Shown: one piece after another, positions 8,080 through 31,556 of the stretch | How the letters are laid out: each line of letters starts with the position of its first letter | Numbering within the stretch: position 1 is the first letter of the stretch | Translations under genes and position numbers: made by a program | The notes under the pieces: model-generated | What the model saw: the letters and a program-made list of their open reading frames with translations, nothing else | What the model was told of the DNA's origin: nothing | The model's database searches: none | Assembly: GCA_025839675.1 (NCBI GenBank) | Contig: CP104013.1 | Location: 1,020,001 to 1,052,000 of the forward strand | Source: Candidatus Lokiarchaeum ossiferum | GTDB lineage: Archaea; Asgardarchaeota; Lokiarchaeia; Sigyniarchaeales; Promethearchaeaceae | Length of the DNA stretch: 32,000 nt | Reading direction: 5' to 3'

Positions 8080-9423
8080 TTATTCGTTTTTATCCATAGC
8101 CAGAGAATTTCGCGACTCGAAAGAAAGCCGTTTATCCAACTTCTCAATTAATTCACCTAAAGTTTTGCCGGTGACATTTTGGCTGAGAAAAGCAACCGAA
8201 GATACCCCATATTTAAGAATATTGACTGCTTTTACAACTAAAGCCATATTCGTTTTGGTATGTATCACAGAATAATCCATTTCACCAAAACCAGGTGTTT
8301 CTTTTAAAATGGACTGTTGATTTTTAACAAGGTTGATAATATGAGAAATATCATCCAAATCCATATCTGCAGTGGCTTTTTGGCTGATTACGACATTATC
8401 ATCGTTTAGAAGAAAAATGGCACTTTTTGCTTGATCTTTAATTACATCATTGCAAAAATCTTCTATGGAATTACCTACTTTTGATAGATCATTCAAGATA
8501 ATTTGCATTGATCTAAATAGAGTGTGAATTAGTTCGGGTTGAATCGAAGTGAATATTGTTTTGATCCCATAGTCATTATCCAAGATCTGTTTGATTTCCA
8601 AGAATTGTTTTGCCTTCTCTTGATTTGTTCCAGCAAGTAAATCAATCTTATGGCAAAAAGCATAGATTGTTGCATTTGCCGCGGTGGAATTTTTGGCATT
8701 TATAATACTATCCAAATTTCCAAGAACCTTTTCTCGCTCTTCTTCCCAATTTTTTACATCAAAAATATATATTACGATATCAGATTCTTCAAAAGCGATC
8801 ATTCGTTCAAAACTATTCTGAGGAGAAACATATGATTCAAATTCTTGGCCAGAAGAATCCACAATACCTACTTCTGCATCGAGCCATGAATACACAAAAT
8901 GGGCTAATCCACGAGTCGGTTCTGGTGCAGCTTGTCCAAGTAATATGCTAGGATCTACACCATCAAAGAATGCTTTTTTAATACACGTTTTTCCTGCTGA
9001 AGGAAATCCAATAAACAATAATTTTCGAGAAGCTTGTTGTTGATAAAATAGTTTGGCGAATTCTGAAAAAGTCAGAGCCCGATCTCGTTTATTCCGATTA
9101 TAAAATGATTCTAATTGATCGGCTAATAAACCATAAAATTCTTTCACAGTATTGGTCTCATCAGCAGCTAATATTAACACAATCAATTCAATTTCATTGG
9201 TACCATAGATATGTTTTGTATTTACCAAAATAATTTTGTCATTATACTTTAATTCTAATACACCCTCGTCTTCACTATCCGTTCCAGTGATAATATTTAC
9301 GATCTTTTGGATTAAACCACGTGATATATTGAATTCTTTCGGATAAGAACTATCTAAAAATCCTTTGAACTTGTTCGAGGGAGGTGTTTCTTTTACAGTA
9401 ATTAATGCAAGACCTAAGGGCAT
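8080..9423 (-). CDS. Three-domain small GTPase: N-terminal longin-like alpha/beta domain, Rag/Gtr1-like GTPase, C-terminal roadblock domain
   Basis: G1 is GFPSAGKT (8986-9009). G3 is VDSSGQE. G4 is HKID (8641-8652), the HKxD variant typical of Rag/Gtr1. VIYIFDVKN, IYAFCHKIDLL and TSIQPE parallel RagA LIYVFDVES, IFCLVHKMDLV and TSIWDE (recalled from memory). The C-terminal ~120 aa (AKSAIFLLNDDNVVISQ...MALVVKAVN) are roadblock-like. The start is moved to ATG 9423 (MPLGLALI); the track's TTG at 9528 adds 35 hydrophobic, low-quality residues. Confidence 0.8.
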   Translation of the reverse strand: MPLGLALITVKETPPSNKFKGFLDSSYPKEFNISRGLIQKIVNIITGTDSEDEGVLELKYNDKIILVNTKHIYGTNEIELIVLILAADETNTVKEFYGLLADQLESFYNRNKRDRALTFSEFAKLFYQQQASRKLLFIGFPSAGKTCIKKAFFDGVDPSILLGQAAPEPTRGLAHFVYSWLDAEVGIVDSSGQEFESYVSPQNSFERMIAFEESDIVIYIFDVKNWEEEREKVLGNLDSIINAKNSTAANATIYAFCHKIDLLAGTNQEKAKQFLEIKQILDNDYGIKTIFTSIQPELIHTLFRSMQIILNDLSKVGNSIEDFCNDVIKDQAKSAIFLLNDDNVVISQKATADMDLDDISHIINLVKNQQSILKETPGFGEMDYSVIHTKTNMALVVKAVNILKYGVSSVAFLSQNVTGKTLGELIEKLDKRLSFESRNSLAMDKNE

Positions 9424-9734
9424 ACTAAGGTTGTATCGAAAAATTATAAATATAAAATTATGGTTGGAAAGTTGTTTTAAAGAAATTCCAAGAAAGTTTC
9501 CAACAAAACTAAAATAAAACCACGTCAATTCAAAAATTAAATTTTATTTACTGTCATTTTTTCTTGGTAAAATGAAAATAGGAAAAACTGTTAAACTTTT
9601 AACCATAAACTAAAATATTAACATAAGTGATTGATTATTTGAATAAATGAATGTCTTCACAAATATCTAAAGCGCAATAGATAGACATCAAGAAATTTCT
9701 TATTTTCAATTTTAACTATTTTAAGGGTATTCTC

Positions 9735-16068: not shown

Positions 16069-17463
16069 TTATTTGACCATGAAGTAAAAACGTGTGCCCA
16101 ATCGGAATGATTTATCAATTTTGGCCATTTTCCGCTCCACCAGGAAATCAAGCGCTTCTTTCACGCGAAATTCAGTCCAACCCAATTTGGTCATGATTTC
16201 TTCTTTTGTCAGAACCCCGGTGGTTTGAGCAAATTTCAATAAACGAGAAGGATCTTCAGTCAATTCTAAAGGATGGAATAATACCATATAATATCCCGTT
16301 GGAAGCTTTTGTACTTCAGAAATCAGCCCACTTTTGACCATTTTTTTAACAATTTTGACAAATTTTTTCATAGATAAATTCCAATCAGGATAATCTTGGG
16401 ATATTTCAGTATATAAAGCAGCCATGGGTAATTGGACTTCTGCAACTTCTTTTAGTTCGGCACCCTTCATTAAGACATATGTACGAATTTGATTTTCAAT
16501 TTCTTTATTCTTCTGCTTCCCTTTAAGACCAGCATGTAACTTACGAATACTAGTTTGTAAATCTTCAGCAAGTTCCTCAGCATGAACACCATTTTCATGA
16601 TAAACGCGAAGTAGAACGGTTCCATGATCTTTATGACAATTCATTTGATATTCAATTAACTCTTTTGGGACACCTTGATCATGGATAACAAAAGATCGAG
16701 ACGTAGTAAATCCCTTCTTTTTCTCATCAGTAATTTTCTCATCAAAAAGTTCATAGCTGGTAAATAATCCAACGATGCTTTGATCCAACATCTTGGGATC
16801 GGAAGAATCAAAGTTCAAATCCAAACTTTCAGTTGCTTGAACCATGTTGCTACTTTTCACATTAGCAATTAAATTTTGCAATATATTGAGCTTCATTTGT
16901 TCTGTTCGATCTATTTTTTGCTGTTCTAAAGCATTTTCCATGTGTTCTAATTCATCATCAGCATATTTTTCAAGAAAAATTTGAGTCGTAGGGCCTATTT
17001 CAACAGGCAATAAAGGCTGAGCTTTAATTGCAAACCCTCGAAGAATCATTATACCTTTACCCGCATCAATCGCACTTTTAACTTCTGTCCCAACATCATA
17101 TATATTACCCAAGAGACCATCCTTGATGCTTGCTGTCCAATTCCCAGGTGTAATCGCCAGATTCTTTTCAGAAATGCCAAATGTGATCTCTTCAGCGTGG
17201 GATAAATTATATGGATATAAATCGACTGTATCATTTTGACTGAGAATTCCTGAGAGGTATTTATCAACTTCCAAGAGTGGAATGTCATTATGAGAAGAAT
17301 CCTCCACAATTTCAAGAATTTTTACAATAAATGAATAGGTTTTCGATCGAATTGTGGAAATTGCAATATAAGTTTGACCAGAAGAAATATTCGGAGTTGA
17401 TTCAGAGCAATGAAGAATTGCTTGCTTCCGAGTTTGAGGGCTAAGTTTTACTTTCATTTTCAT
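16069..17463 (-). CDS. CDC48-N-like (double-psi barrel/beta-clam) domain, a central alpha/beta region and C-terminal tandem winged-helix domains; last gene of the E1-JAMM operon
   Basis: The N-terminal ~175 aa (16939-17463) end in QPLLPVEIGPTTQIFLEK, paralleling VAT/CDC48-N ...PSKVPVEIGEETKIEIREE (recalled). The C-terminus (about 16072-16461) has two WH-like units: FVKIVKKMVKSGLISEVQKLPTGYYMVLF and VLTKEEIMTKLGWTEFRVKEALDFLVERKMAKIDKSFRLGTRFYF. The second strongly recalls EAP30/Vps22-type WH sequences. Confidence 0.6.
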   Translation of the reverse strand: MKMKVKLSPQTRKQAILHCSESTPNISSGQTYIAISTIRSKTYSFIVKILEIVEDSSHNDIPLLEVDKYLSGILSQNDTVDLYPYNLSHAEEITFGISEKNLAITPGNWTASIKDGLLGNIYDVGTEVKSAIDAGKGIMILRGFAIKAQPLLPVEIGPTTQIFLEKYADDELEHMENALEQQKIDRTEQMKLNILQNLIANVKSSNMVQATESLDLNFDSSDPKMLDQSIVGLFTSYELFDEKITDEKKKGFTTSRSFVIHDQGVPKELIEYQMNCHKDHGTVLLRVYHENGVHAEELAEDLQTSIRKLHAGLKGKQKNKEIENQIRTYVLMKGAELKEVAEVQLPMAALYTEISQDYPDWNLSMKKFVKIVKKMVKSGLISEVQKLPTGYYMVLFHPLELTEDPSRLLKFAQTTGVLTKEEIMTKLGWTEFRVKEALDFLVERKMAKIDKSFRLGTRFYFMVK

Positions 17464-17508
17464 TCACAGCTGTCTTTGTTAAAAAATATAGATTCAGAAT
17501 TTATAATT

Positions 17509-18942
17509 TTATTGTTGGATCATTTGGATGATCTGAGAAACTTCATCTCGTTTCTCAAAATTTCCTCGAATGTTGTAAATATCTTGAAGCACATATAAGA
17601 TTTCACAAGATTCTATGGCTTTTCCAGAAAAGATTAGATATTTTGCGCGCTTAAACATAGATTGCATGATATTGTCATCTTGCTGGAATATTTGATCATG
17701 ATTTGGAAAATATTCAGCAGCTAACGGTGAAAGTCCATCTAAAGTGTTTTTAAATGCATTGATCTTATCAATAAAAGAAGGAATATGACGATTCATAACA
17801 TTTAACATCATAGATAATCCTGGATAAGGTAATTGGATAGGAGCAGGAGCAATAATTTCTAAATTACGTGGGGTTTTTCCTTCAAATATACATCTTGATA
17901 CAGATTGAATCATTAAATCCATAACCTCTGCTTTTATTTTTGCAATCATATCTTCTTGAATTTCTGCTTTCTGAGAATTCAAAATTTGGTGAAAACTAAA
18001 ATATATATCACCTTGCAATTGAATTTCTTTATTTGAAGACATTTTTTTGGAAATATTAGTATTTGAACAAGAGAGATCTATGAAAATAGAAGATTTTTTT
18101 TTAAACATTCGTTTCAAGGTATTTTGGGGCAAATTTCCGAGAGAATGTGAAGATTTAAGCTTAATAACTTCATTTTCAAAGAGTTCCTTTGATGTTTCTA
18201 AAGGGGGAATCCCGCGCTTACTTTGATGATCTACATATCGTTTTCGTTTTTTGGTGCTTTCGACAAGAAAACTAAATTGTCCATGGCTCCAAATATGTTC
18301 AAAATTTCCCATGAGGTGTTTTAATAAGACTTGATTAATCATACCTGAGATCGGTATCATCAGATCGATAGAAAGGTGACAATAAGTGTTTATACTATTG
18401 AAATGTTCAATCGGAGATATTTCTTCGGTCATTTCGATTTCATTCGTGGATTTTTCTTCCGACGATAACTGAAACCATCGAGTTTTATTCTGTTCATCAT
18501 CTTCCGAGGAATTGCTATTTGTGACTGCACTTATCATCTTTGGATAGTAGCGTGCTAAATTTTGTAAAGTTCTATCATCTACGCTAGAATGGAAGATATC
18601 CGCTGGATGAGAGTGATAAATACCAATCATCCCCACCCCATGAGGAAGGGAAGAACTAAGTTCTTGAACTTCTCGAGGATCGGGTGCCGCACCAATATAA
18701 GTCTGAAGCTGATATCGTTGACAGGCAACGGCTGTGAGAACGATTAAATCGCCTTCAGGATTTTCTCTCCCGATTAACCACCCATAGATTTCTTTTGGAG
18801 AAGATAAAGCATGGTTTTTAATAAAATCAAGTATCCATGGCGCAATAATCTTTTTTGGACCATCCTTACGAGTTATAATCTTTTTTTCCAAGTTTTTTTG
18901 GCGGTCCCATTCTTCTTCACCCATAATTTCTCTTTCTGACAT
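17509..18942 (-). CDS. JAMM/MPN+ metalloprotease (Rpn11/JAB1-like isopeptidase) with a C-terminal extension of about 330 aa and unknown fold
   Basis: Glu motif PKEIYGWLIGRE. The complete H-x-H-x7-S-x2-D motif is HSHPADIFHSSVDD (18574-18615). The rest of the 477-aa protein has no motif I recognise. Confidence 0.9.
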   Translation of the reverse strand: MSEREIMGEEEWDRQKNLEKKIITRKDGPKKIIAPWILDFIKNHALSSPKEIYGWLIGRENPEGDLIVLTAVACQRYQLQTYIGAAPDPREVQELSSSLPHGVGMIGIYHSHPADIFHSSVDDRTLQNLARYYPKMISAVTNSNSSEDDEQNKTRWFQLSSEEKSTNEIEMTEEISPIEHFNSINTYCHLSIDLMIPISGMINQVLLKHLMGNFEHIWSHGQFSFLVESTKKRKRYVDHQSKRGIPPLETSKELFENEVIKLKSSHSLGNLPQNTLKRMFKKKSSIFIDLSCSNTNISKKMSSNKEIQLQGDIYFSFHQILNSQKAEIQEDMIAKIKAEVMDLMIQSVSRCIFEGKTPRNLEIIAPAPIQLPYPGLSMMLNVMNRHIPSFIDKINAFKNTLDGLSPLAAEYFPNHDQIFQQDDNIMQSMFKRAKYLIFSGKAIESCEILYVLQDIYNIRGNFEKRDEVSQIIQMIQQ

Positions 18943-18951
18943 TATTTCACC

Positions 18952-19728
18952 TTATTCTAAATCGGAACATGCAGGACATTTTGGATCTCTCGAAGTAATA
19001 AAATTTCGAAATTCACCCGTTAAAGCATTATAGGTTTGATAATCTACCAACGTTCCAAGATTTAACATATATTTTAATGCTTCTTGTACCTGCAACGAAG
19101 CAATAATTGCCATTGTTGTAGGTAATGAAGCAGTACATGCTTCTCCCCTCTCCTTTTTTTCATTCGTTCCTTTCAAACGAGCAGTGCACATCATGCAAGC
19201 ACTTTTACCGGGAAAAATAGGATGAACATTTCCTGAGAGAGCAGAACGTGATACACCTGCATCAATTAATAATTTTTTATGATTGATGCATTTCTGATTA
19301 CAAAAACTCCGAGCAGGATAATTATCAAGCCCCATTAAAACCAAATCAGATTTACTCACTGCTTCGTCAAATTGGTCATCAATACCCCACATCATAATAT
19401 CCCCATGAACTGCGATAATATTAACATCAGGATTGATTTCAATTAAACGCTGTTCAACGACTTTGACTTTGGGAACACCTATATCAGCTTCCATGAAACC
19501 AACACGATTCAAATTTACTGCTTCTACAATGTCATAATCAAAAATATAAATTGTTCCTATTCCACACCGAGCGAGCATTTCAGAAGAGATGATTCCCAAT
19601 CCCCCTACCCCAGCAATGGTAACAGATTTTTGTCTTAAGGACTCCCAAGAGATATCGTAACCAAATTGCCTTATTGCTTTTAAGCGAGTATATCTATCTT
19701 CTTTTTTATCCGATATTTGAGTTTCCAA
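18952..19728 (-). CDS. E1-like adenylating/activating enzyme, UBA5-like (ThiF/MoeB fold, four Zn cysteines, catalytic Cys loop)
   Basis: GVGGLGIISSEMLARCGIGTIYIFDYDIVEAVNLNR (nucleotide-binding block). GVSRSALSGNVHPIFPGKSACMMC plus KCPAC give the Cys4 zinc site. GEACTASLPTTMAIIASLQVQEALKYMLNLGT carries a Cys at 19135-19137 that aligns with the UBA5 catalytic Cys context [16 protein letters not shown] (recalled from memory). Confidence 0.9.
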   Translation of the reverse strand: METQISDKKEDRYTRLKAIRQFGYDISWESLRQKSVTIAGVGGLGIISSEMLARCGIGTIYIFDYDIVEAVNLNRVGFMEADIGVPKVKVVEQRLIEINPDVNIIAVHGDIMMWGIDDQFDEAVSKSDLVLMGLDNYPARSFCNQKCINHKKLLIDAGVSRSALSGNVHPIFPGKSACMMCTARLKGTNEKKERGEACTASLPTTMAIIASLQVQEALKYMLNLGTLVDYQTYNALTGEFRNFITSRDPKCPACSDLE

Positions 19729-19928
19729 TATTGTTCAATCCGATTTCTGGTATTTTGGATATTATTTTTCTTGACTAAATATTGGATCAGATGTAATTAA
19801 AATTTTCGATAGTTACACTACTTGAGGGAATCTCAAAAAATGATTAAGATAAAATTTTAAATCATAACTGCCATAGATAAAGCAATATAATATCGCTATG
19901 TTTACGATAAAAAGATAAGAATTAGAAG
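19729..19928. promoter_or_regulatory. Divergent intergenic region between the E1-JAMM-CDC48N/WH operon (minus) and the Ubl-E2 pair (plus); presumed bidirectional promoter
   Basis: A 200-bp AT-rich spacer between divergently oriented first genes. It contains several TATA-like stretches and an inverted repeat TATCG-N9-CGATA just upstream of the Ubl start. No TSS can be assigned from sequence alone. Confidence 0.35.
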
Positions 19929-20210
19929 ATGAAAATTATGAGTGATAATACGATAATGTTCTATTTTACAACTCGGGTTGGTCCAGAGAAACGTCAGATC
20001 CCTTTTCCCGCAAGTCCTTCCTTAGATTTTGTAGATGTAATTGAAGAAGTATGTAAAAAATTTGGAGTTTCAATGCAAACTCTAAGTTTGGCCACCCCGA
20101 CAGGATTAGTTCTAACAAATACAGATTTAATGGAGTCTGTATCAAAAGTTGCGGATAAATATGGATTTGCCTTTGAAATTATTGATCAAGGGGTTGTCGG
20201 TGGAAATTAA
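19929..20210 (+). CDS. Ubiquitin-fold modifier, UFM1-like, ending in ...VVGG-N
   Basis: 93 aa. It aligns without gaps to human UFM1 (recalled) over the N-terminal block (FYFTT..P......P.S..F..VI.....KF.V...T...T..G) and the C-terminal block (VADKYGFAFEIIDQGVVG vs VFLKHGSELRIIPRDRVG). Gly-Gly lies at 20199-20204, followed by one Asn and the stop. Confidence 0.8.
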   Translation: MKIMSDNTIMFYFTTRVGPEKRQIPFPASPSLDFVDVIEEVCKKFGVSMQTLSLATPTGLVLTNTDLMESVSKVADKYGFAFEIIDQGVVGGN

Positions 20211-20789
20211 ATGGTAAATGGGGAAGCAAAAGTTTCCGGCTGGAATGCTGGACTTGCAGAACGATATATCCCACCTTTCCAAGATAAATGGGGAAAAGTT
20301 GGTCCCAAACATTCAGCATGGCATGAACGAGTTAAACTGGAGATTATTTCTTTATCAAAATATGTAACTTTTTTAAAAAGTGAACTTCCCCGTCCATGGT
20401 TCCTATTAAAACCCGATGCAAATCCGCGATATAATTTTAGCCTATGGAAAGGACATCTCCAAATTCCGTCCAGACCAGAAATTCGGTTTGACATGGTAAT
20501 TTTACTGAACTCAGAATATCCTCGAGTTATTCCCCGCTGCTTATTAGAGAAAAATATTGCCAATTACTGTGGGAAAATTTATCTAAAAAACTCATGGAAA
20601 GATCCTCAAACAGGTAAAGAATATGTCATGATTTGCCATGATCATATGGCTGAACTTGCAAATGCATGGGAATCAAATTTAGGCATTGTTCATTTCTTCA
20701 TTCGCGAAGTTTGGTTCTGGTTTGCAGCGATGCAAAATATAATCATTAAAAATTGGGATAAAACCAATGAAACTTCAACTAGAAAGTAA
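20211..20789 (+). CDS. E2-like conjugating enzyme, UFC1-like UBC fold
   Basis: GPKHSAWHERVKLEIISLSKYV vs UFC1 [30 protein letters not shown] vs DWFRLES. RFDMVILLNSEYPRVIP vs EFDIEFDIPITYPTTAP. ICHDHMAELANAW..LGIVH vs ICLTDHFKPLWAR..FGLAH (UFC1 recalled from memory). The candidate catalytic Cys142 is at 20634-20636. The ATG directly abuts the Ubl stop codon. Confidence 0.75.
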   Translation: MVNGEAKVSGWNAGLAERYIPPFQDKWGKVGPKHSAWHERVKLEIISLSKYVTFLKSELPRPWFLLKPDANPRYNFSLWKGHLQIPSRPEIRFDMVILLNSEYPRVIPRCLLEKNIANYCGKIYLKNSWKDPQTGKEYVMICHDHMAELANAWESNLGIVHFFIREVWFWFAAMQNIIIKNWDKTNETSTRK

Positions 20790-20830: not shown

Positions 20831-21922
20831 TTAAGAAACCTCTTGCCGAATATCGAATAAACTAACCCATTGATAATAAACTTGATAACATTCAGGACAG
20901 AAAATCACTGCCCTGGTCACCAATTGATTATTCTTCACCTTATAAGACCCATCTTCTTGATCGAAATTCTTGAGAATGTTCTCCGATTTGCAGCGAGGAC
21001 AAACATTAATATCTTGAAAATCAATGAAACGAAAATCAGGATTGAGAATTTTTTCCACCTTATCCTTTTCTTTCTGCATTTGTACAATTTTGTCCATCTC
21101 TTGCATGCCTTCATCATCTGCATGAATAGATTCGGTACTTTCTGAATCAATTTTTCCCAGTTCCCGAATTATCTGCCCATCTTTGATGATTAAAGTCCGA
21201 TCCGCAATTTTTCGGACTTCTGGGTTGTGAGTGACTATCACAATAGATTTATCCGGATTTTTTTGAATGAACTGTCTAAAAATGTTCATAATTTTTTCTG
21301 ACGAGATAGAATCAATATTACCCGTAGGTTCATCGGCCAAAATAATAGTGGGATTATTTGCAAATGCCATTGCAATTGCCACTCGCTGTTTTTCCCCACC
21401 TGATAGCGTAAAAGGACGATGATGTGCACGATCTTCTAACCCGATTTCTTTAATGAGCTCATGAACTCGAGTTCGTTTATACTCATTGCTCTTCTTCGCA
21501 ATAGTCATAGGCAATTCTACATTTCCTTCTGCGGTCAAACTGGGAATAAGGTTAAAAAATTGAAAGACTATACCAATTTCATTTTGCAAAATTTGCTGCA
21601 CTCCTTCATCCTTCATACGAGTAACATCAAACCCACGAATGAACACATGCCCTGCACTGGCTTGATCCATCCCAGATATGACGTTTAAAAGAGTTGTTTT
21701 TCCTGATCCTGAAGGACCCATAATCACAACAATCTCTCCAGCGTAAATATTCATATTGACTCCCTTAAGGGCGACTACTTCCAAATTACCTTGTTGGAAG
21801 ATGCGAAAGACATTTTGACAACTAATGTTCACTTGTCGTTGTTTTAAAGGGAGACTCTTATCATCGGACGCATTTATAAAGCCTTCATCCATTTTAGATG
21901 CTTCAGTTTCATTTTTTATCAT
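20831..21922 (-). CDS. ABC transporter ATP-binding protein (MacB/LolD-type) with a C-terminal extension of about 110 aa ending in a zinc ribbon; copy 1
   Basis: Walker A GPSGSGKTT, Q-loop, signature LSGGEKQRVAIA, Walker B ILADEPTGNID, H-loop VTHN. The tail has CPRC...x33...CPEC (20888-21001). Confidence 0.95.
   Translation of the reverse strand: MIKNETEASKMDEGFINASDDKSLPLKQRQVNISCQNVFRIFQQGNLEVVALKGVNMNIYAGEIVVIMGPSGSGKTTLLNVISGMDQASAGHVFIRGFDVTRMKDEGVQQILQNEIGIVFQFFNLIPSLTAEGNVELPMTIAKKSNEYKRTRVHELIKEIGLEDRAHHRPFTLSGGEKQRVAIAMAFANNPTIILADEPTGNIDSISSEKIMNIFRQFIQKNPDKSIVIVTHNPEVRKIADRTLIIKDGQIIRELGKIDSESTESIHADDEGMQEMDKIVQMQKEKDKVEKILNPDFRFIDFQDINVCPRCKSENILKNFDQEDGSYKVKNNQLVTRAVIFCPECYQVYYQWVSLFDIRQEVS
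20835..21825. repeat. Direct repeat copy A (991 bp, 100% identical to 30445-31435)
   Basis: I compared the two copies block by block by eye and every 60-nt line is identical at an offset of 9610. The first mismatches are at 20834/30444 and 21826/31436. Confidence 0.9.
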
Positions 21923-21943
21923 TTTTTTGCATACCTCAATACT

Positions 21944-24900
21944 TTAAAATTGATGGAAATAGTCGGTATATTTCCTTTTTGACTCCAAATAATAGAGAAG
22001 GAGATATATCAGAAAGGAAAGTAGTGGAATAATCGCAATAATCCCAACTAAATCAATTGCGTTCCAAAAAATAGGGGATCTATATGATGAACCTTCAAAA
22101 TTGACCAATTTAATTATTTTGGAGAGTACAATTCCAAAAATGGAACCACTGATGATTCCATTAAATATTGGAATGAAGAATATGACAAAAATTTCCATAA
22201 ATGTCAGCGCTAATAACCCTTTCTTCCCCACACCTCGAGCTAGTAGTGTTCCATGATAATGCTTGTCCATTTTCCGTAAGTAAACCAATAGTATTCCAAT
22301 TCCAATCGCCATCAGAATTCCAATGATGATGAATTCAAAATAAAAAATTACATATGTTCCTGAGGAAAATTGTATTATATCGAGAGCCATATCATTCCAC
22401 TGATCTTGATATATACTGACATAAGTATGACCATTAAAATTATCTGTGACTTCACTGATCTTGTTAGATAGTCCACTTTGATCCAAAGTGCAATTTTCAT
22501 TCAAATTCATTAAAGTAAAAAATTGCAAACTATGCAAATATGAAGAATTCGTATTGACCGAACTTAGATCTATAAGCATGAACTCTTCTTCATTATAATA
22601 ACTTGAACTTTTAGAAGTGTAAAAACCCGGAAGAGTGTCAATTACATCAAATATAATTGCTACAATCTCGTCCAATTGCATTCGATTTGTTAATGGGTCA
22701 TAATAATAATGATTAATTGAAGTTTTCTCATAAAGGGATTTTAGATGAGCTTTTTGATATTGTGAATTAACGATTACACCTGGTAATTTTCCAGATGTAA
22801 GATTATTATTATACAGAGTCAAATTACGTAATCTATTATAAAGATTCTTTTCTGGTTCAAGTTTTTCTGGTTCTGATATAAGATCTAGATATTTGGAAAC
22901 ATTTGTAATATATTTCGTTGTTTCATGATACACTCTAAAATAAGCGGGACTTCCAGAATCTACAAACGTTGTGACAGCTTTGGTACTCATGTTTTGATTG
23001 TCAGTTAATGTCAAATTTAATAACTGATCTTCCATTGAATCAATATCTTCTGCACAGCGGATTTTTGAGGAAGAATCAAGCCCATTTTCTTCGTTAATTG
23101 GAATTTGAGCAAAACTAATCTTACAATCAGCTCCAATTTTTAAGTTACTATCAATAATTTCTGTTCTTACGGATGTCTGAAAATAAATATTAGAGAAAGT
23201 CAAGAGGGAGACAAAAATGCCTATAAGATACATAGTCATTATATAAGGCTTTTTTTTTATTATATTCAAGGCAACTAATTTTGATTTACTTTTTGAATAA
23301 ATAGAAACGATTATCTTTGATAACCGTCCTAAACGACTAGGTTTTTCATAAGCGATTAGGTGAATTATTCCAACCACCATTAAAACAGGTGAAAGTATGG
23401 ATAGTACTGCAAACGGCTGGCTGAAAGGAGAAATTAGTTCAGAAATCCAGATTAATGTATCATTGGTTCCTTTTCTCCCATTATCAACGATTAAGTAAAA
23501 GATCAGGGGAAAAAGAGAGAATAATATTAAAATAATGCCAAATCTATGAACTTTCCCCTTTTCATTCGAAGAAACAGTATCTTTGTATAAATTCTGATGT
23601 TTTAGAATTCTATCAATTATTAATGGTTTTTCTTTATTGCTTGATAACCTGCGAGCTGTTTCAGCGGGTTTTTTTTTTGATTTTTCAATATCATCAAGAA
23701 AATATGGGTTTTTTTCTTCAATATTGCCAGAAAAGAAGGGTAGATCATTTAAAGTAACATTCTTGGTTTTTGAACTGTTAAATAAAGTTATTTCGTCATA
23801 TGTGATATCAAATGATTCTGAATTTACCTTACTAAGTAGTTCTTTTGTGGATACATTCTTTAGATATACCAATGAAAAAACATTGGCAACTTGGGTTATA
23901 ATGATTCCGGCGAGAAATGTCAAAAGGACACTATTAAATGAAAAAAAAATAGGTAAATTTAGTGAAACTTGATTCCAGCTAACAAGACTTAATAAAGTAG
24001 TACGAAATGAATAAAATACGATAATCCCACAGAAACAGGCAAAAATAGATGAAGAAACTCCGATAAAAATTCCTTCAATAATCAATTGAATAGAAAGCAT
24101 TTTTGTTGAAGCACCTTTACTTTTCAAGAGAAGAAATTCTTCAATCCGATTTTTCTGCTCAACTTTTAAGGCAAATGCTCCAATAAAAATCGCAAAGATA
24201 AGAATGGGAAGAACAATTAACTGAAGACTGATCCGGATATCCTTCAATTGAGTTGAAAATTCGCATAAAGCGAGATAGAGAGAATTATCAAAGTCCATAT
24301 AATCAGGTAAAGTAAGAGAAAATTCGGATCCAGCTTCTCCAATATTGTTTGTGATTGTAGAGAGGAAATTAAAAGAGATAGAACTTCTATCTGAAATTAA
24401 TGAACACCCTCGAATGGGAAAAAAGTTGATTATTGAAAAATCAACGTTGATTCGAGCTAAAACATCTTCTAATGGATTGGATGAAATGTTTTTTGATGTA
24501 TTCAAGAATGTAAACAGAGGAGGATTGATTTTTGGATCTTCTAAAGAATTTTCTGATACAGGTGAAATTTTCTGGGTTAGTTCATCGAAGTGATAGCCAA
24601 AAAAATAATTGTCTTGTGAAAATTTTAAATGGGCCAATTTAGATGCATAAATACCGACAACTTCAAATTTTGAAAAATTTAGAGTGTGTACCTCATCTCG
24701 TAATGTTAATTGATCATCATCACCGTCATAAAGCGATGAATAAGCACAAATTTCAATCATTTGATCTTTTCCAATAGATAAATTCATCTTTTGTGCAAAA
24801 TTGATATCAATTAAAATTTGATCCATAGAAGTGGGAAAGGTACCATTTAATATTTTAAAATATCGATTGAAGCGCGCAGATTCATAAAAATTTGTCGAAT

Positions 24901-25315
24901 AGGCATTGTATTGCAATTGAGAAGAAAAATATTTATTCAGAACTGGTCTTTGGGAAGTTGGGATTTGGGTATAATTTTTGAAGAAAGCAACTCTACGATA
25001 ATCTTGGATGATCTCAAAGGAATATTGTTCAATAATATCAATATGCTTGTTAAATTCAGAGAATGAAGGGATAAAATTTTCAATTTTTTCACTTTCCAAG
25101 GTATAAGTTGAATTATTATCTAAAGTTCGATAAAAAATGTTAAAATCATCAATTTGTCCAAAGGATTTTTGAAGGGTTTCTTGTTTATATGAATCTGTAA
25201 ATATATAGATACCAGAAACCATACTTAAGGCGATCCCTAATCCGATAACAATTAACACACTTTTCTTTATACTTTTTCTTCCTTGTTTGAAATAATATTT
25301 TAAACGATTGTTCAT
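21944..25315 (-). CDS. Very large ABC transporter permease with two FtsX/MacB-type 4-TM modules, each preceded by a large extracytoplasmic domain
   Basis: An N-terminal TM is followed by a ~330-aa N-x-S/T-rich ectodomain. The first FtsX block is EEFLLLKSKGASTKMLSIQLIIEG. A basic cytoplasmic linker follows, then a second TM and ectodomain. The second FtsX block is LLARGVGKKGLLALTFMEIF. The gene lies 21 nt upstream of the ATPase. Confidence 0.85.
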   Translation of the reverse strand: MNNRLKYYFKQGRKSIKKSVLIVIGLGIALSMVSGIYIFTDSYKQETLQKSFGQIDDFNIFYRTLDNNSTYTLESEKIENFIPSFSEFNKHIDIIEQYSFEIIQDYRRVAFFKNYTQIPTSQRPVLNKYFSSQLQYNAYSTNFYESARFNRYFKILNGTFPTSMDQILIDINFAQKMNLSIGKDQMIEICAYSSLYDGDDDQLTLRDEVHTLNFSKFEVVGIYASKLAHLKFSQDNYFFGYHFDELTQKISPVSENSLEDPKINPPLFTFLNTSKNISSNPLEDVLARINVDFSIINFFPIRGCSLISDRSSISFNFLSTITNNIGEAGSEFSLTLPDYMDFDNSLYLALCEFSTQLKDIRISLQLIVLPILIFAIFIGAFALKVEQKNRIEEFLLLKSKGASTKMLSIQLIIEGIFIGVSSSIFACFCGIIVFYSFRTTLLSLVSWNQVSLNLPIFFSFNSVLLTFLAGIIITQVANVFSLVYLKNVSTKELLSKVNSESFDITYDEITLFNSSKTKNVTLNDLPFFSGNIEEKNPYFLDDIEKSKKKPAETARRLSSNKEKPLIIDRILKHQNLYKDTVSSNEKGKVHRFGIILILFSLFPLIFYLIVDNGRKGTNDTLIWISELISPFSQPFAVLSILSPVLMVVGIIHLIAYEKPSRLGRLSKIIVSIYSKSKSKLVALNIIKKKPYIMTMYLIGIFVSLLTFSNIYFQTSVRTEIIDSNLKIGADCKISFAQIPINEENGLDSSSKIRCAEDIDSMEDQLLNLTLTDNQNMSTKAVTTFVDSGSPAYFRVYHETTKYITNVSKYLDLISEPEKLEPEKNLYNRLRNLTLYNNNLTSGKLPGVIVNSQYQKAHLKSLYEKTSINHYYYDPLTNRMQLDEIVAIIFDVIDTLPGFYTSKSSSYYNEEEFMLIDLSSVNTNSSYLHSLQFFTLMNLNENCTLDQSGLSNKISEVTDNFNGHTYVSIYQDQWNDMALDIIQFSSGTYVIFYFEFIIIGILMAIGIGILLVYLRKMDKHYHGTLLARGVGKKGLLALTFMEIFVIFFIPIFNGIISGSIFGIVLSKIIKLVNFEGSSYRSPIFWNAIDLVGIIAIIPLLSFLIYLLLYYLESKRKYTDYFHQF

Positions 25316-25341
25316 GTTCTCACCGATTTGCTTATGTTCCG

Positions 25342-28300
25342 TTAAAACTTGTGGAAAAATGTAGAGATTTTTTTCCTCGCTTCATTTTTATAAATAAAAT
25401 ATGAAATTCCAAACGATAGTCCAATTATTAGACTAATTATTCCAATAATATCAAATAGATTGATAAAAATAGGTAAATCAATTGCGCTTTTTGATGGATC
25501 TAACGTTCGATCCATTTTAACAAGAACTGTCGAAAATACAACACCAATTCCCAGTCCAAAAAGAATAGCAATAAAGAATAATACAAAAAGTTCAGTTAAA
25601 ATCAAACTTAATAATCCTTTTTTACCAAATCCACGGGCCAATAAAACCCCATTAAAATATTTCTTTTCTCGTTCTAGAGCAATTAATACAATTGATAAAC
25701 CAAATGCAATTAGAATTCCAACAATAATAAAATCAATATATAACACGGTATAGAAACCAAGAATATCTAGGGATGTGTCTAATTCTAGCATCTTAAAATC
25801 TTGATCGTAAAAATCCAGTTCCTTATATAAAGTTGAAAAGTCACTTGTACAATTTTCAATATATGCTTCTAAAATTTTGGGATCTGACTCCACGGTGGGG
25901 TCAATATCAATCATCTGATAAATATGGCTTGAAGGGAGACAATAATCAGGTATCTCCAGAAACGAAGCATCGAATAGAATGACTTCATCATTTTTAGTTT
26001 GATAAACATATTCAGTATATAATCCAGGAAAAATATTGAGGGAACTTAGAATTTTGCATCGTAATTTCGAAAAATAAGGAGTATGAGTATCTAAATCATA
26101 AGATCTGTGTTTGACATCCAGTAAATCCCCCACTTTAACACCATTATTCTCTAAGAAAAGATCATTTACAATAATACCAGGGACCTGACAAGATGTTAAA
26201 GGAATACTCATAAGTTCTCCTATTGCAGGTTCTCCTTTTGAACTTCGATTATTATCATCTTGATTATCTATTGATGGTTCTTCTTCAATCTTTAGAAAAT
26301 CATTATTATATTTAATTACTTCTTTAAATGATTGCTTAAAAGCAGAACTAGGATAATTTTTATTATTTTCCCCAATTATTTTGAAATATTTCTCAAATTC
26401 AATAACATAAATAGACCAATCCGGATTATTTACATCATAATCTTCTTTGTAATAGCTCAAAACATTATTTATGAGATATTTATCAGTCTCAGGAACTTGA
26501 TAATTCAATAAAGTGTTTTCAAGATTATGCAACTCTGAAATTTTTGTTATATTTTCTGAATATTTATGAAGCGTTGCAGTGATATCAGCTCCAACAATAT
26601 AATTTTCACTTAAATAATTATAACGTGCATTTGAATTCAAATAAATATTTGAAAAAGAAAAGAGAGAGGAAAATAGAGCTAATACTAAAATTAATATTTT
26701 ATATTGTTTTCTTCTGAGCATTTCAATGCCAACTAAAAAACTCCTTTCCTTTATGAATAATTGAGCAATTCTTTGAGATAATTTGGAGAATAGTATTGGG
26801 ATTTCAACGGTAATTAATCTTATTATTCCCCAAACCAAAAATACTGGAGATATCACAATGATAACGTTTAATGCGATAAACATAGCATCTTGTTGCAAGA
26901 ATTCGACGACTTCAGTCAATGAATCAGACAAAACTCGAGATTTTGAATAATATATAAAAAGATAAATGCAAGTTGGAATAAAAGAACTAAAAATCAATAG
27001 AAATGAGTATTTAATTGGCTTCTTTTTTCTTTTAATTGGCGCGGTCTTTTTTTTATTTGAATCTAAGCCCAATTTTCTTAAATTTTCCTCATTTTTGCTT
27101 AAAAGGGCAAAATTTTCTCCATAGACCATTCTTTGTTTGAGTTCTTTGATTTTTTCAAAATCTTTTACTTCTTCTTTATGTTCTTTTTTCTTATCACGTT
27201 TTTTCTGTGCTCTTCTTTTTGAATTCCCTTGAGAAATTGTTGATTGATCGTTTAAAATTTTGTTCTCCGAGACAATAAAATCTCTGGTGTATATAGTATT
27301 ACTATCGTCGGATTTTACTTTATTTTTCCGAGTCAATGTTTTTTCATTGAATTCAGCTTCAAAATCTTCTGATCCAATCTGTCCAAGAACTTTGCCGATA
27401 TCTATATCAAGAATAGATTTCAAGGCACTTATACTCCCAATCAAAGATAAAATCTGCCCAATTGCAAAAATTTGTAAAATAATTGACAAGTTTACCGTGG
27501 GTTTAAGGAATTCGGAATAAATTAATATTCCTGTAAAAAATTGCTTAAATGCATAGAAAAAGAAAACCCCAAAAATTAAACTTAATGTTGAAGAAATTAT
27601 TCCAATTAAAGAATTTTCATACAAAAATTCAATGAATGTCATCCTTGGGGGCGCCCCTTTACTTTTGAGTAATAAAAATTCTTCAGCACGAGAAGTTACT
27701 TCTGTTTTTCGTGCAAAAGATCCAAAAAGAATGGCTGCAATAATCAACGGAATACTTAAGACAATAAGTACTCCTCGAAGGAAAAGGGTATCAAGATATA
27801 CTTTTTTCATTATTGGATAGAGTATAGAAGTAAGTTCAAACGAATCAGGCAAATTTGTCTCAATCACATTATCTTCAGAATTCAATTGTTTCGAAAAAGC
27901 ATTATAATTATGAAATCCAACATTATTCCTGTTAATAATTCCAAAAAAACCAAAAAAGGCTTCTGAGACATGAGTTAGGGGATTATTATCAATTGTTTGA
28001 TCAAACTGATAAATTAGTTCTTGATATGCAAATTTATCATCTTGTGAAGAAAAATTATGGACAGTTAAAATAGGTGCACTTTCAGGAAATTCTTGAGTAT
28101 ATTCAATTACTCCCGTTTCTGGATCATATTGATAATTTACTTCAAAATTTTTTGTGAGAAATCGATATTGTACCTTATTTGAAGCGTAAACACCAACAAT
28201 AGTGGAGTTAAGGTGCACTCCATTATACTTTTCATTAAAGAAAGTTGATTTCAAAGGATGGATAGTCATAGGATCACCATAACTATCGAAAAATTGTTCA

Positions 28301-28902
28301 AAACCTTGAAGATTTTTTTCTAAGCATATGCTTAGATCTTGGTATCCATCCAATGTTATATTAAAATATTCCATGTAGGAGATATCAAGAATAATTTCAT
28401 TAGAAGAGAGTGGTAATCGTCCTTCCAGCAACGTGAAAAAGGAATTAAACCTATCAGACTGATAAAAAGAATTTTCGATCTGAATTACAGAGAAAGGAAG
28501 GACGGATAATTGAGATTCTTCTGTAGGATCAAAGGGCAGCGATCTATTTAAAGCGAGTTTTAAAAATTCAGAATGAAAACACCCATAGTCAAATAATTGA
28601 TCAAGTTCCATATCCCTTTCTTCTATCATTTTTTTTGCGGAAACGATTTTCTCTTGATTTTTGGCAAATGCCGCAGTTCCATTATAAGAATCAGCACTAA
28701 CATCCACCGTAAAATCAACGACGTTTGTGAGTTTTCGATCAAGTAATTCTCGTTCATAAGAAAGGGAATATATATTTAGACCAAAAATCACACTAATTGT
28801 TAAAGAAAATGCAATGATAATTAAAATATTACTTCGTGTACTATGATATGCTCGTTTAATGTAATAGGATATTCGGGATCTAATTTTTACAACACCTTTC
28901 AC
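25342..28902 (-). CDS. Second very large double-FtsX/MacB-type ABC permease (paralog of 21944-25315)
   Basis: Same architecture as the paralog: EEFLLLKSKGAPPRMTFIEFLYEN, a lysine-rich linker (KRRAQKKRDKKKEHKEE...KRKKKPIK) and LLARGFGKKGLLSLILTELF. The start is GTG at 28902, with no nearby in-frame ATG. The gap to the next permease is 26 nt. Confidence 0.85.
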   Translation of the reverse strand: MKGVVKIRSRISYYIKRAYHSTRSNILIIIAFSLTISVIFGLNIYSLSYERELLDRKLTNVVDFTVDVSADSYNGTAAFAKNQEKIVSAKKMIEERDMELDQLFDYGCFHSEFLKLALNRSLPFDPTEESQLSVLPFSVIQIENSFYQSDRFNSFFTLLEGRLPLSSNEIILDISYMEYFNITLDGYQDLSICLEKNLQGFEQFFDSYGDPMTIHPLKSTFFNEKYNGVHLNSTIVGVYASNKVQYRFLTKNFEVNYQYDPETGVIEYTQEFPESAPILTVHNFSSQDDKFAYQELIYQFDQTIDNNPLTHVSEAFFGFFGIINRNNVGFHNYNAFSKQLNSEDNVIETNLPDSFELTSILYPIMKKVYLDTLFLRGVLIVLSIPLIIAAILFGSFARKTEVTSRAEEFLLLKSKGAPPRMTFIEFLYENSLIGIISSTLSLIFGVFFFYAFKQFFTGILIYSEFLKPTVNLSIILQIFAIGQILSLIGSISALKSILDIDIGKVLGQIGSEDFEAEFNEKTLTRKNKVKSDDSNTIYTRDFIVSENKILNDQSTISQGNSKRRAQKKRDKKKEHKEEVKDFEKIKELKQRMVYGENFALLSKNEENLRKLGLDSNKKKTAPIKRKKKPIKYSFLLIFSSFIPTCIYLFIYYSKSRVLSDSLTEVVEFLQQDAMFIALNVIIVISPVFLVWGIIRLITVEIPILFSKLSQRIAQLFIKERSFLVGIEMLRRKQYKILILVLALFSSLFSFSNIYLNSNARYNYLSENYIVGADITATLHKYSENITKISELHNLENTLLNYQVPETDKYLINNVLSYYKEDYDVNNPDWSIYVIEFEKYFKIIGENNKNYPSSAFKQSFKEVIKYNNDFLKIEEEPSIDNQDDNNRSSKGEPAIGELMSIPLTSCQVPGIIVNDLFLENNGVKVGDLLDVKHRSYDLDTHTPYFSKLRCKILSSLNIFPGLYTEYVYQTKNDEVILFDASFLEIPDYCLPSSHIYQMIDIDPTVESDPKILEAYIENCTSDFSTLYKELDFYDQDFKMLELDTSLDILGFYTVLYIDFIIVGILIAFGLSIVLIALEREKKYFNGVLLARGFGKKGLLSLILTELFVLFFIAILFGLGIGVVFSTVLVKMDRTLDPSKSAIDLPIFINLFDIIGIISLIIGLSFGISYFIYKNEARKKISTFFHKF

Positions 28903-30440: not shown

Positions 30441-31532
30441 TTATGAAACCTCTTGCCGAATATCGAATAAACTAACCCATTGATAATAAACTTGATAACA
30501 TTCAGGACAGAAAATCACTGCCCTGGTCACCAATTGATTATTCTTCACCTTATAAGACCCATCTTCTTGATCGAAATTCTTGAGAATGTTCTCCGATTTG
30601 CAGCGAGGACAAACATTAATATCTTGAAAATCAATGAAACGAAAATCAGGATTGAGAATTTTTTCCACCTTATCCTTTTCTTTCTGCATTTGTACAATTT
30701 TGTCCATCTCTTGCATGCCTTCATCATCTGCATGAATAGATTCGGTACTTTCTGAATCAATTTTTCCCAGTTCCCGAATTATCTGCCCATCTTTGATGAT
30801 TAAAGTCCGATCCGCAATTTTTCGGACTTCTGGGTTGTGAGTGACTATCACAATAGATTTATCCGGATTTTTTTGAATGAACTGTCTAAAAATGTTCATA
30901 ATTTTTTCTGACGAGATAGAATCAATATTACCCGTAGGTTCATCGGCCAAAATAATAGTGGGATTATTTGCAAATGCCATTGCAATTGCCACTCGCTGTT
31001 TTTCCCCACCTGATAGCGTAAAAGGACGATGATGTGCACGATCTTCTAACCCGATTTCTTTAATGAGCTCATGAACTCGAGTTCGTTTATACTCATTGCT
31101 CTTCTTCGCAATAGTCATAGGCAATTCTACATTTCCTTCTGCGGTCAAACTGGGAATAAGGTTAAAAAATTGAAAGACTATACCAATTTCATTTTGCAAA
31201 ATTTGCTGCACTCCTTCATCCTTCATACGAGTAACATCAAACCCACGAATGAACACATGCCCTGCACTGGCTTGATCCATCCCAGATATGACGTTTAAAA
31301 GAGTTGTTTTTCCTGATCCTGAAGGACCCATAATCACAACAATCTCTCCAGCGTAAATATTCATATTGACTCCCTTAAGGGCGACTACTTCCAAATTACC
31401 TTGTTGGAAGATGCGAAAGACATTTTGACAACTAACGTTCACTTGCCTTTGTTTCAAGGGGACTTGTTTGTCTTGCGGTGTTACATTAGCGTCTACATCC
31501 GTTTTGGATGATTCATTTTCATTTTCGATCAT
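30441..31532 (-). CDS. ABC transporter ATP-binding protein with zinc-ribbon tail; copy 2
   Basis: The protein is identical to copy 1 over about 330 C-terminal residues. Only the first ~33 residues differ (MIENENESSKTDVDANVTPQDKQVPLKQRQVNVS vs MIKNETEASKMDEGFINASDDKSLPLKQRQVNIS). Confidence 0.95.
   Translation of the reverse strand: MIENENESSKTDVDANVTPQDKQVPLKQRQVNVSCQNVFRIFQQGNLEVVALKGVNMNIYAGEIVVIMGPSGSGKTTLLNVISGMDQASAGHVFIRGFDVTRMKDEGVQQILQNEIGIVFQFFNLIPSLTAEGNVELPMTIAKKSNEYKRTRVHELIKEIGLEDRAHHRPFTLSGGEKQRVAIAMAFANNPTIILADEPTGNIDSISSEKIMNIFRQFIQKNPDKSIVIVTHNPEVRKIADRTLIIKDGQIIRELGKIDSESTESIHADDEGMQEMDKIVQMQKEKDKVEKILNPDFRFIDFQDINVCPRCKSENILKNFDQEDGSYKVKNNQLVTRAVIFCPECYQVYYQWVSLFDIRQEVS
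30445..31435. repeat. Direct repeat copy B (991 bp, 100% identical to 20835-21825)
   Basis: See copy A. The flanks on both sides are only partly similar or unrelated. Confidence 0.9.
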
Positions 31533-31556
31533 AGTTTGACATTCCTTTTTTTTTTA

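Follow-up and report, generated by a model that had tools for sequence, protein, structure and literature searches.

A predicted UFM1-type conjugation cassette with a JAMM protease and a Cdc48-N/winged-helix partner in Candidatus Lokiarchaeum ossiferum

The origin of UFMylation, in which the modifier UFM1 is handled by the E1 UBA5 and the E2 UFC1, is an open question: the most detailed survey to date describes UFM1, UFC1, UfSP2 and C53 as exclusively eukaryotic, UBA5, with UBA5-like proteins known from a wide range of bacteria and archaea, as probably bacterial, and UFL1 and DDRGK1 as coming from Asgard archaea (PMC10183829). Other surveys of Asgard genomes mention solely 'E3 UFM1-protein ligase 1' domains, while a structure-mining study reports proteins structurally homologous to Ufm1 from nine Asgard clades and from no further prokaryotes (Nat Microbiol 2026, PMC12962969; preprint 10.1101/2024.07.03.601958). 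The accessible text of that paper and preprint reports the modifier alone, with no mention of UBA5, UFC1, a protease or gene context. Here, a five-gene cassette is described from a 32,000-nucleotide (nt) stretch of the Candidatus Lokiarchaeum ossiferum genome (hereafter the window, that is, the whole stretch analysed, in whose positions all coordinates are given), which probably constitutes a UFM1-type ubiquitin-like conjugation operon with maturation by a JAMM protease. Its ubiquitin-like protein (Ubl) very probably belongs to the published Asgard family, a UFM1-like beta-grasp that is confined, among prokaryotes, to Asgard archaea. No description of a UFC1-type E2 or of such a cassette in Asgard archaea was found in the openly searchable literature (subscription-only papers were outside its reach). 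Thus, the Asgard Ufm1 modifier is already published, but the finding at the level of the cassette (UFC1-type E2, UBA5-type E1, JAMM, Ubl-E2 fusions, a tail on E1 that resembles the UFC1-binding sequence of UBA5, and a Cdc48-N/winged-helix partner) appears to be undescribed.

Clusters of comparable gene content are known from other prokaryotic systems: (i) in Caldiarchaeum subterraneum, ubiquitin, E1, E2, a RING E3 and an Rpn11-like JAMM enzyme are likewise encoded in an operon, and the Rpn11-like enzyme processes the C-terminally extended archaeal ubiquitin precursor and deubiquitinates (PMC6043591), yet that operon is of ubiquitin type (Gly-Gly end, canonical UBC E2 and RING E3), whereas the Lokiarchaeum one is of UFM1 type, with a UFC1-like E2 and no RING; (ii) the haloarchaeal system of small archaeal modifier proteins (SAMPs), UbaA and HvJAMM1 likewise pairs a MoeB-like E1 that has no separate Cys domain with a JAMM desampylase, the NCBIfam model of which gives a weak match in the cassette, but it uses no E2, and SAMPs carry a Gly-Gly end and serve as sulfur carriers as well; (iii) the bacterial Bil and Bub systems, and Cap2-Cap3 of the cyclic-oligonucleotide-based antiphage signalling system (CBASS), likewise encode E1, E2, JAB and Ubl together, but they occupy defence islands, employ other E2 families and often carry E1-E2 fusions, while the matches of the Lokiarchaeum proteins to them are weak or generic and the Lokiarchaeum cluster is conserved among Asgard archaea.

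The cassette is laid out around one divergent spacer as follows (genes from the list of open reading frames (ORFs), the spacer from reading of the sequence):

16069-17463, minus strand: 464-aa accessory protein (Cdc48-N-like domain plus tandem winged helix)
17509-18942, minus strand: JAMM/MPN+ metalloprotease, 477 aa
18952-19728, minus strand: UBA5-type E1, 258 aa, TTG start, adenylation domain only
19729-19928, no strand: divergent intergenic spacer of 200 nt, AT-rich, between E1 (minus) and Ubl (plus)
19929-20210, plus strand: UFM1-like modifier precursor (the Ubl), 93 aa
20211-20789, plus strand: UFC1-type E2, 192 aa

The E1 and JAMM genes are separated by 9 nt and the JAMM and accessory genes by 45 nt, and the stop codon of the Ubl (TAA, 20208-20210) abuts the ATG of the E2. 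The five ORFs and both minus-strand gaps claimed by an earlier reading of this DNA (hereafter the original prediction) match the ORF list exactly, and the peptide strings that it quoted are present in the translations; moreover, the same five genes are found in independent gene calls on sequence-identical Logan contigs. The spacer carries TATA-like runs, for example, aaaattttaaat at ~19853-19864, and the two transcription units are presumably driven by promoters within it.

The E1 matched only the generic ThiF family in Pfam (4e-52). Among sequences in PDB, however, human UBA5 was its best match by phmmer (1.5e-47, 165 bits), ahead of MoeB (1.2e-26, 97 bits) by ~20 orders of magnitude in E-value and also ahead of ThiF (7e-21, 78 bits) and UBA1 (1.6e-14, 57 bits). 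The E1 thus sides with UBA5 rather than with MoeB, ThiF or UBA1, as the original prediction had claimed, and the alignment with UBA5 given there was reproduced by phmmer, with 41% identity over 241 aligned aa. The catalytic residue named there, Cys198 (19135-19137), lies within EACTASLPTTM and is aligned opposite GVC250AASLPTTM of UBA5; it is invariant in 24 of 24 Asgard orthologues, as are the zinc cysteines C178, C181, C251 and C254. The window E1 stops 4 residues past the last zinc Cys and has no C-terminal tail, that is, neither a UFM1-interacting sequence (UIS) nor a UFC1-binding sequence (UBS). Most orthologues are longer (275-305 aa) and end in a C-terminal amphipathic motif (for example, DLxDLIDKIK, ...GDLNDLIDKIKE), in which the spacing L-x-x-L-I-x-K-I-K matches that of the human UBA5 UFC1-binding sequence L394xxL397M398xK400M401K402 (positions per PMC8481289). 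The match is suggestive of a UBS-like tail; it is drawn from the published residue spacing, as the orthologue tail found no match among PDB sequences, and no UIS-like element was identified.

The E2 by itself matched UFC1 in Pfam (1.9e-4, 21.6 bits) and not UQ_con, and it matched UFC1 entries exclusively among PDB sequences (phmmer, E 0.02). Its family comprises 54 homologues, of which every named source is Asgard and many carry a precomputed PF08694 annotation. A profile built from 35 of the 54 again retrieved UFC1 exclusively from PDB (1.7e-6), and Pfam recognized UFC1 in 34 of these 35 members and UQ_con in one. When families were compared by hhalign, the probability was 84% for UFC1 versus 6.5% for UBC9 and 1.8% for UbcH5b, and the score with UFC1 was 40.8 versus 13.2 ± 2.4 with shuffled UFC1. 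Furthermore, with an AlphaFold2 (AF2) model of the E2 (predicted local distance difference test (pLDDT) 88, predicted template modelling score (pTM) 0.83) as query, Foldseek ranks 1-26 were all UFC1 (E from 1e-5 to 6e-4; template modelling (TM) score 0.6-0.75), whereas canonical E2s appeared from rank 27 on (E at least 7e-3; TM 0.3-0.45). Profile, Pfam and fold ranks therefore agree with the earlier claim that the E2 is UFC1-like rather than a canonical UBC.

UFC1 is set apart by an extra N-terminal helix, a helix after the catalytic Cys, a long unbroken last helix (alpha2) and the lack of alpha3 and alpha4 (PMC8481289). In the Lokiarchaeum model, helices at 15-19 and 25-29 precede alpha1, a helix at 144-147 follows Cys142, a single helix spans 159-190, and alpha3 and alpha4 are missing; the sequence has no HPN motif. 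As modelled, the E2 has the UFC1-specific fold variant. The catalytic Cys142 (20634-20636), which the original prediction had singled out, stands in an invariant M-I-C-H-x-H block and is invariant in 35 of 35 members, and K122 is conserved in at least 90% of the family. The invariance of Cys198 in the E1 and of Cys142 in the E2 far exceeds what chance would give. Full-length hhalign pairs C142 with C116 of UFC1, K122 with K108, Y124 with Y110 and W170 with W145, placing MIC142HDH opposite KIC116LTDH; residues ~125-139 are treated as a hairpin insertion relative to UFC1; in the E2, a beta-hairpin insertion of ~12 residues precedes the Cys. Of the TAK motif of UFC1, the Lys is kept, while the Thr and Ala are not conserved. 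The default HMMER register, in which Tyr124 falls on UFC1 Cys116 (GKIYL onto GKICL), was rejected as a local mis-registration because Cys142 is invariant, the model has a helix directly after Cys142 and the full-length hhalign alignment pairs C142 with C116.

For the Ubl, a profile of 43 sequences that included diverse hits of a large protein search (an earlier profile held 16 sequences) was aligned by hhalign with human UFM1 at a probability of 94.3% and a score of 41.3; shuffled UFM1 (150 shuffles) scored 10.6 ± 2.3 with a maximum of 17.9, which puts the Ubl profile at z ~13. With the same profile, the probability was 20% for SUMO1, 6% for ubiquitin and NEDD8, and <1% for URM1, MoaD, ThiS, SAMP1, SAMP2 and GABARAP (of the panel sequences, that of UFM1 was verified as identical to PDB 8ohd_D). 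In this comparison, the Ubl thus falls with UFM1 and not with ubiquitin, SAMP or MoaD, as had been claimed. The link emerged solely by profile-profile comparison with the more diverse alignment, and NCBIfam offered no UFM1 link. The alignment pairs Ubl residues 24-92 with UFM1 residues 19-84. The original prediction had described it as ungapped at both ends; the C-terminal VG is indeed in register (...RVG, followed by SC in UFM1), but the alignment contains one 3-residue gap and leaves ~23 N-terminal residues unaligned.

The C-terminus of the Ubl family reads, invariantly, ...IIDQG(V/I)VG, and is followed by 0-5 variable residues, with many members ending at VG, as in the pattern of proUFM1. 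In the window Ubl, Val90-Gly91 (20196-20201) is conserved, and between it and the stop codon lies a Gly-Asn tail that is not; Gly91, not Gly92, is the conserved glycine. At the other end, two in-frame ATGs are present (Met1 at 19929 and Met4 at 19938); most orthologues begin at the Met4 position (MSxN...) and two Logan gene calls give a protein of 90 aa, and the true start may be 19938.

The JAMM protease carries a JAB domain at ~residues 35-145 (Pfam Prok-JAB, 9e-10) with an intact metal site (E51, H110-S-H112, S120 and D123; 18574-18792), and the catalytic motif is invariant in 15-23 orthologues. In PDB, the family profile best matched the Rpn11-like enzyme of Caldiarchaeum subterraneum (6fju/6fjv, 1.5e-8); the C-terminal ~330 aa are poorly conserved and no fold was assigned to them. 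The gene adjoins that of the E1 in 23 loci of the synteny scan described below. In about a fifth of lineages, the Ubl and E2 are fused in frame in a single ORF (7 loci, for example, L003:7743-8555, plus 7 database proteins with lengths of 266-293 aa); one of the junctions reads ...IIDRGIVG-SKSHDISWQ.... Therefore, endoproteolysis after VG is required in these lineages to yield a conjugatable modifier. Because the fusions need a protease and the JAMM gene is always adjacent, they provide the best argument for JAMM as the maturation enzyme. From the fusions, the Ubl tails and the Rpn11 relative, we infer that JAMM cleaves its cognate Ubl precursor.

Relatives of the Ubl and E2 were also found in proteins of other architecture outside the window. 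In one of 874 aa (P0078), a Ufm1-like Ubl domain (194-277) ends in ...HRVVG; the very next residue is the Cys of a Hint/intein-type domain, behind which lie leucine-rich repeats (LRRs). The Gly-Cys junction suggests autoprocessing, by which the Ubl C-terminus could be freed or activated independently of an E1. In another (P0080, 285 aa), a domain of the Ubl family is fused to an N-terminal TIR domain, and a SIR2_2 plus TPR protein of 866 aa (L016:96-2696) has a UFC1-like E2 as its C-terminal domain. By their domain composition, the TIR-Ubl and SIR2_2-TPR-E2 proteins look like redeployments of these modules of the conflict or defence type.

The conservation of the gene neighbourhood was determined with the E2 profile, run against a single genome for each GTDB species; this yielded 32 loci from Sigynarchaeum, Hermod-, Odin- and Heimdallarchaeota, two complete Heimdallarchaeum genomes, Hodarchaeota and unclassified Promethearchaeota. 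E1, JAMM, Ubl and E2 occurred together in 23 of the 32, and the survey of Asgard genomes proposed by the original prediction thus found the four genes syntenic across Asgard classes; the remaining nine loci were short contigs, partial matches or a different fusion. The usual order, on one strand, is the core of the 464-aa protein, E1, JAMM, Ubl and E2, while the divergent arrangement is common to the window and Sigynarchaeum. Of the 23 loci, 20 also encode the core of the 464-aa protein, mostly directly upstream of E1; in Heimdall-type loci it lies 2-4 kb off on the opposite strand. Moreover, in 18 loci the cassette is flanked by a pair of genes, one for an SPFH/Band-7 protein that has a coiled-coil tail and one for a winged-helix protein of either 345 aa (EAP30-like) or ~460 aa (for example, L003:3495-4340, L023:9754-10401 and L008:10145-11245, plus 15 others), which hints at a link to membrane microdomains. 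Neither the SPFH gene nor the separate winged-helix gene has a counterpart within the window. When other ubiquitin-system genes, UFL1 and DDRGK1 were sought among the neighbours in the related loci, only variable WD40, LRR, PAS-kinase and transposase genes were found.

Several peculiarities of single loci were recorded. One metagenome-assembled genome (33X4, JAHLWS01) harbours two complete cassettes on different contigs (L007 and L014), so that paralogous copies exist. Genes for large LRR proteins are inserted between E1, JAMM and Ubl in L005 and L007. Partial UFC1-like E2 matches were located on two contigs (L027 and L031) binned as 'Patescibacteria group bacterium AMOR_Bin_1762', which are probably mis-binned Asgard contigs.

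The fifth gene encodes the 464-aa accessory protein. In Pfam, its only trace was a weak C-terminal EAP30/Vps36 match (3e-4), with no match to CDC48_N. An AF2 model built from 8 sequences (pLDDT 80.6, pTM 0.49) and Foldseek divided it into three parts, on the minus strand:

residues ~1-180 (16924-17463), minus strand: Cdc48/p97 N-domain-like fold
residues ~205-340, minus strand: middle alpha/beta region plus long helices, no fold assigned
residues ~340-464 (16072-16446), minus strand: tandem winged helix like that of ESCRT-II EAP30/Vps22

Foldseek returned >40 matches to N-domains of p97, Cdc48 and VAT (best E 6e-8, TMt 0.67, over ~180 residues) and, for the C-terminal part, the winged-helix tandems of ESCRT-II VPS22/EAP30 (3cuq_A/2zme, E 6e-7), so that model and structure search uphold the domain composition, Cdc48-N plus tandem winged helix, that had been read from the sequence. 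No AAA+ ATPase domain follows the Cdc48-N-like domain. The N-terminal ~330 residues are conserved in Asgard genomes as a ~360-aa protein that ends in a CPxCG...CxxC zinc ribbon, which is replaced by the winged-helix tandem solely in Lokiarchaeum-type proteins. In other loci, the gene that directly follows E2 encodes an EAP30-like protein whose C-terminus shares 37% identity (E 1e-18) with this tandem; the 464-aa protein and the EAP30-like accessory protein are thereby linked by domain fusion. The likeness to UFL1 and DDRGK1 is limited to the generic tandem winged-helix architecture.

As in eukaryotic UFMylation, the Lokiarchaeum E1 consists of a minimal adenylation domain of the homodimer type that itself contains the catalytic Cys, and it shares 41% identity with UBA5; the E2 adopts, in its model, the UFC1-specific fold variant and keeps the Cys, Lys and Tyr positions; in the modifier, a single conserved C-terminal Gly is preceded by Val and followed by a short pro-peptide (GN in the window Ubl, SC in human UFM1); and many orthologous E1s end in a helix motif with the spacing of the UFC1-binding sequence, as UBA5 does. 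Unlike in eukaryotes, the genes form an operon, JAMM presumably takes the place of the UfSP1/2 cysteine proteases in maturation and deconjugation, and, instead of UFL1, DDRGK1 and CDK5RAP3, the cluster encodes a protein that combines Cdc48-N and winged-helix domains. The window E1 also differs from UBA5 by the lack of UIS and UBS tails, the E2 differs from UFC1 by the hairpin insertion of ~12 residues and by a TAK motif reduced to Lys, and in some lineages Ubl and E2 are fused.

We consider it likely that the cassette is a UFM1-type ubiquitin-like conjugation operon in which JAMM matures the modifier. The E1, E2, Ubl and JAMM protease are tied to their families by homology, by conserved folds or active sites and by a conserved operon. 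The original prediction had set a UFM1-type cassette against a ubiquitin- or SAMP-type one; in each comparison by which it could have failed, that is, those of Ubl, E1, E2 and synteny, the result fell on the UFM1 side.

Several observations weigh against this reading. The window E2, at 21.6 bits, scores below the Pfam UFC1 gathering score of 25. The Ubl has no significant match in Pfam (including Ufm1) or to UFM1 in PDB, either by phmmer or by hmmsearch with the 16-sequence profile, and a profile search of 1.84 billion proteins returned 44 Ubl relatives with no Pfam Ufm1 protein among them; its designation as a UFM1-like beta-grasp modifier accordingly derives from the profile comparison and the C-terminus, and is offered as a prediction. 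The window E1 lacks both the UFM1-interacting sequence and the UFC1-binding tail that most orthologues carry, and because it is tail-less, the docking of E1 and E2 in L. ossiferum is unexplained; in the orthologues, the UBS-like spacing is a generic amphipathic-helix pattern and could be coincidence. No UfSP relative was found in the cluster, and UFL1, DDRGK1 and CDK5RAP3 had no Pfam match in the five window proteins or in 27 neighbour proteins of the related loci, so that their absence from the cassette, as already noted in the original prediction, holds by Pfam and, for the 464-aa model, by Foldseek. It is by analogy of fold that the 464-aa protein becomes a candidate Ubl-binding adaptor or scaffold/ligase. 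The Asgard E1 and E2 may be either orthologues or deep paralogues of eukaryotic UBA5 and UFC1. Finally, all functional roles in the cassette are predictions from sequences and models.

Under the favoured reading of a UFM1-type operon, the following mechanism is proposed. JAMM would remove the C-terminal Gly-Asn of the Ubl and thereby expose Gly91, and in fused lineages it would cut the Ubl off the E2. UfSP removes Ser-Cys from proUFM1, and trimming by JAMM would parallel this step as well as the action of the Caldiarchaeum Rpn11 on its ubiquitin precursor. A dimer of the E1 would then adenylate Gly91 and form a thioester on Cys198, the Ubl would pass to Cys142 of the E2 by trans-thiolation, and from there it would be transferred to substrate lysines. 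The 464-aa protein could act through its Cdc48-N-like domain and winged-helix tandem as an adaptor binding the Ubl or E2 or as a ligase of the scaffold type, or it could read the modification; the tandem is reminiscent of the scaffold principle of the UFM1 ligase. JAMM would probably also reverse the conjugation.

The part of this proposal most exposed to an alternative is the role of the 464-aa protein. The Cdc48-N-type fold binds beta-grasp domains, as in UBX with p97 and ubiquitin with Ufd1. It is possible, though in our judgement unlikely, that E1, E2, Ubl and JAMM form a UFM1-type system in which the 464-aa protein is a downstream reader (handing modified proteins, for example, to a Cdc48/VAT unfoldase or to machinery that is ESCRT-like or at membranes) or the principal substrate, with conjugation proceeding directly from E2 to lysine independently of an E3. 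The Cdc48-N/Ufd1-type fold is best known as a beta-grasp binder and not as a catalyst; the C-terminal module of the family is swapped among lineages (mostly a zinc ribbon, here a winged helix), as is typical of recognition modules; the ESCRT-II-like winged-helix and SPFH/Band-7 proteins of other Asgard loci hint at membrane-proximal effectors; and neither UFL1 nor DDRGK1 entries are among the Foldseek top 50 for the 464-aa model. However, direct coupling of the gene upstream of E1 in most loci fits an enzymatic partner equally well, and the eukaryotic UFM1 E3 is itself built of winged-helix scaffolds (PMC10438457).

A second alternative takes the cassette for a conflict or defence operon of the Bil, Bub or CBASS Cap2-Cap3 kind that tags viral or self proteins in infection. 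The gene content (E1, E2, JAB and Ubl) is the same, relatives of the Ubl and E2 are fused to TIR, Hint-LRR and SIR2-TPR, LRR genes interrupt some cassettes, and PADLOC matched E1 weakly to Cap2-type 'E1-E2' models (best 9e-15) and JAMM to JAB models (~1e-3). We nevertheless regard this alternative as very improbable: the Ubl, E2 and 464-aa protein are without a match in PADLOC; for the E1, UBA5 gives 165 bits and the best Cap2 model ~53 bits; BilC and BubCD were marginal matches in PDB; the cluster keeps its gene order in many Asgard classes, complete Heimdallarchaeum genomes among them, and is not patchy; and its neighbours in the window are metabolic and transport genes, not a defence island.

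Still less credit is given to an ordinary archaeal system of the ubiquitin or SAMP type, with a MoeB/UbaA-like E1, a canonical UBC E2 and a superficial likeness to UFM1. Such a system would agree with the NCBIfam result for the E1, where MoeB/ThiF and the SAMP-activating UbaA were the best matches (all far below the cut-offs, in a library that has no UBA5 model), with the generic ThiF assignment of the E1 and the lack of a significant match for the Ubl in Pfam, and with the ...VGGN end of the window Ubl, from which a Gly-Gly end is conceivable. Against it, UBA5 scores far above MoeB, ThiF and UBA1 in PDB, sequence, profile and fold all match the E2 to UFC1 rather than to UBC, the probability with the Ubl profile is 6% for ubiquitin and <1% for SAMP1/2 and MoaD/ThiS, one of the two glycines (Gly91) is conserved, the cluster has no RING E3, and SAMP systems have no E2. 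The comparisons of E1, E2 and Ubl have thus largely refuted this alternative already. The chance that the cluster is instead a sulfur-carrier system (a MoaD/ThiS/URM1-like protein plus a MoeB/ThiF-like enzyme) for cofactor synthesis or tRNA thiolation is close to negligible, for although the E1 belongs to the ThiF/MoeB superfamily and shares the CxxC zinc site with MoeB, the cluster has no rhodanese domain and no molybdenum cofactor, thiamine or tRNA-thiolation genes, a dedicated E2 with an invariant Cys and JAMM are co-conserved, and the Ubl ends in VG plus a tail with no free GG and aligns with URM1, MoaD and ThiS at <1%.

If the UFM1-type reading is true, an Asgard operon with UBA5-, UFC1- and UFM1-type genes would move the origin of the core cascade before eukaryogenesis, and the protease and ligase layers would have been swapped later. 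Hallmarks of the UFM1 pathway in the cassette family include the Val-Gly pro-peptide end, the UBS-like tail of E1 in many lineages and the natural Ubl-E2 fusions. More tentatively, in a scenario that we hold to be doubtful, the E1-E2-Ubl triad took shape as an operon in Asgard archaea and passed from them to eukaryotes, as opposed to having been invented by eukaryotes around a bacterial UBA5, with JAMM and the Cdc48-N/winged-helix (or zinc-ribbon) protein as original accessories; the latter would be a new class of Ubl adaptor or scaffold-ligase, and might be a forerunner of UFL1-DDRGK1 that acts at membranes with ESCRT-II-like and SPFH proteins. As a soluble, minimal system of five genes from the cultured L. 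ossiferum, the cassette would open the poorly understood chemistry of UFC1 and of scaffold-type ligases to reconstitution.

Around the cassette, the window resembles an ordinary Asgard chromosome, with Roadblock/LC7, Gtr1/RagA-like GTPase, Dus, KaiC-like, CoA-transferase pair and ABC/FtsX genes. Directly downstream of E2, the opposite strand bears two gene sets in which an ABC ATPase is followed by giant FtsX-type permeases (20831-28902 and 30441-31961, both minus); they have no conserved placement beside the cassette in other genomes; their ABC ATPase is of 363 aa with a C-terminal, Cys-rich, zinc-ribbon-like tail, and the FtsX-type permeases are of 1123 and 1186 aa. Genes of the eukaryote-signature type in the window encode a Roadblock/LC7-domain protein (1805-2392, plus strand) and a 482-aa Gtr1/RagA-like GTPase with a hint of an N-terminal helix-turn-helix (8080-9528, minus strand).

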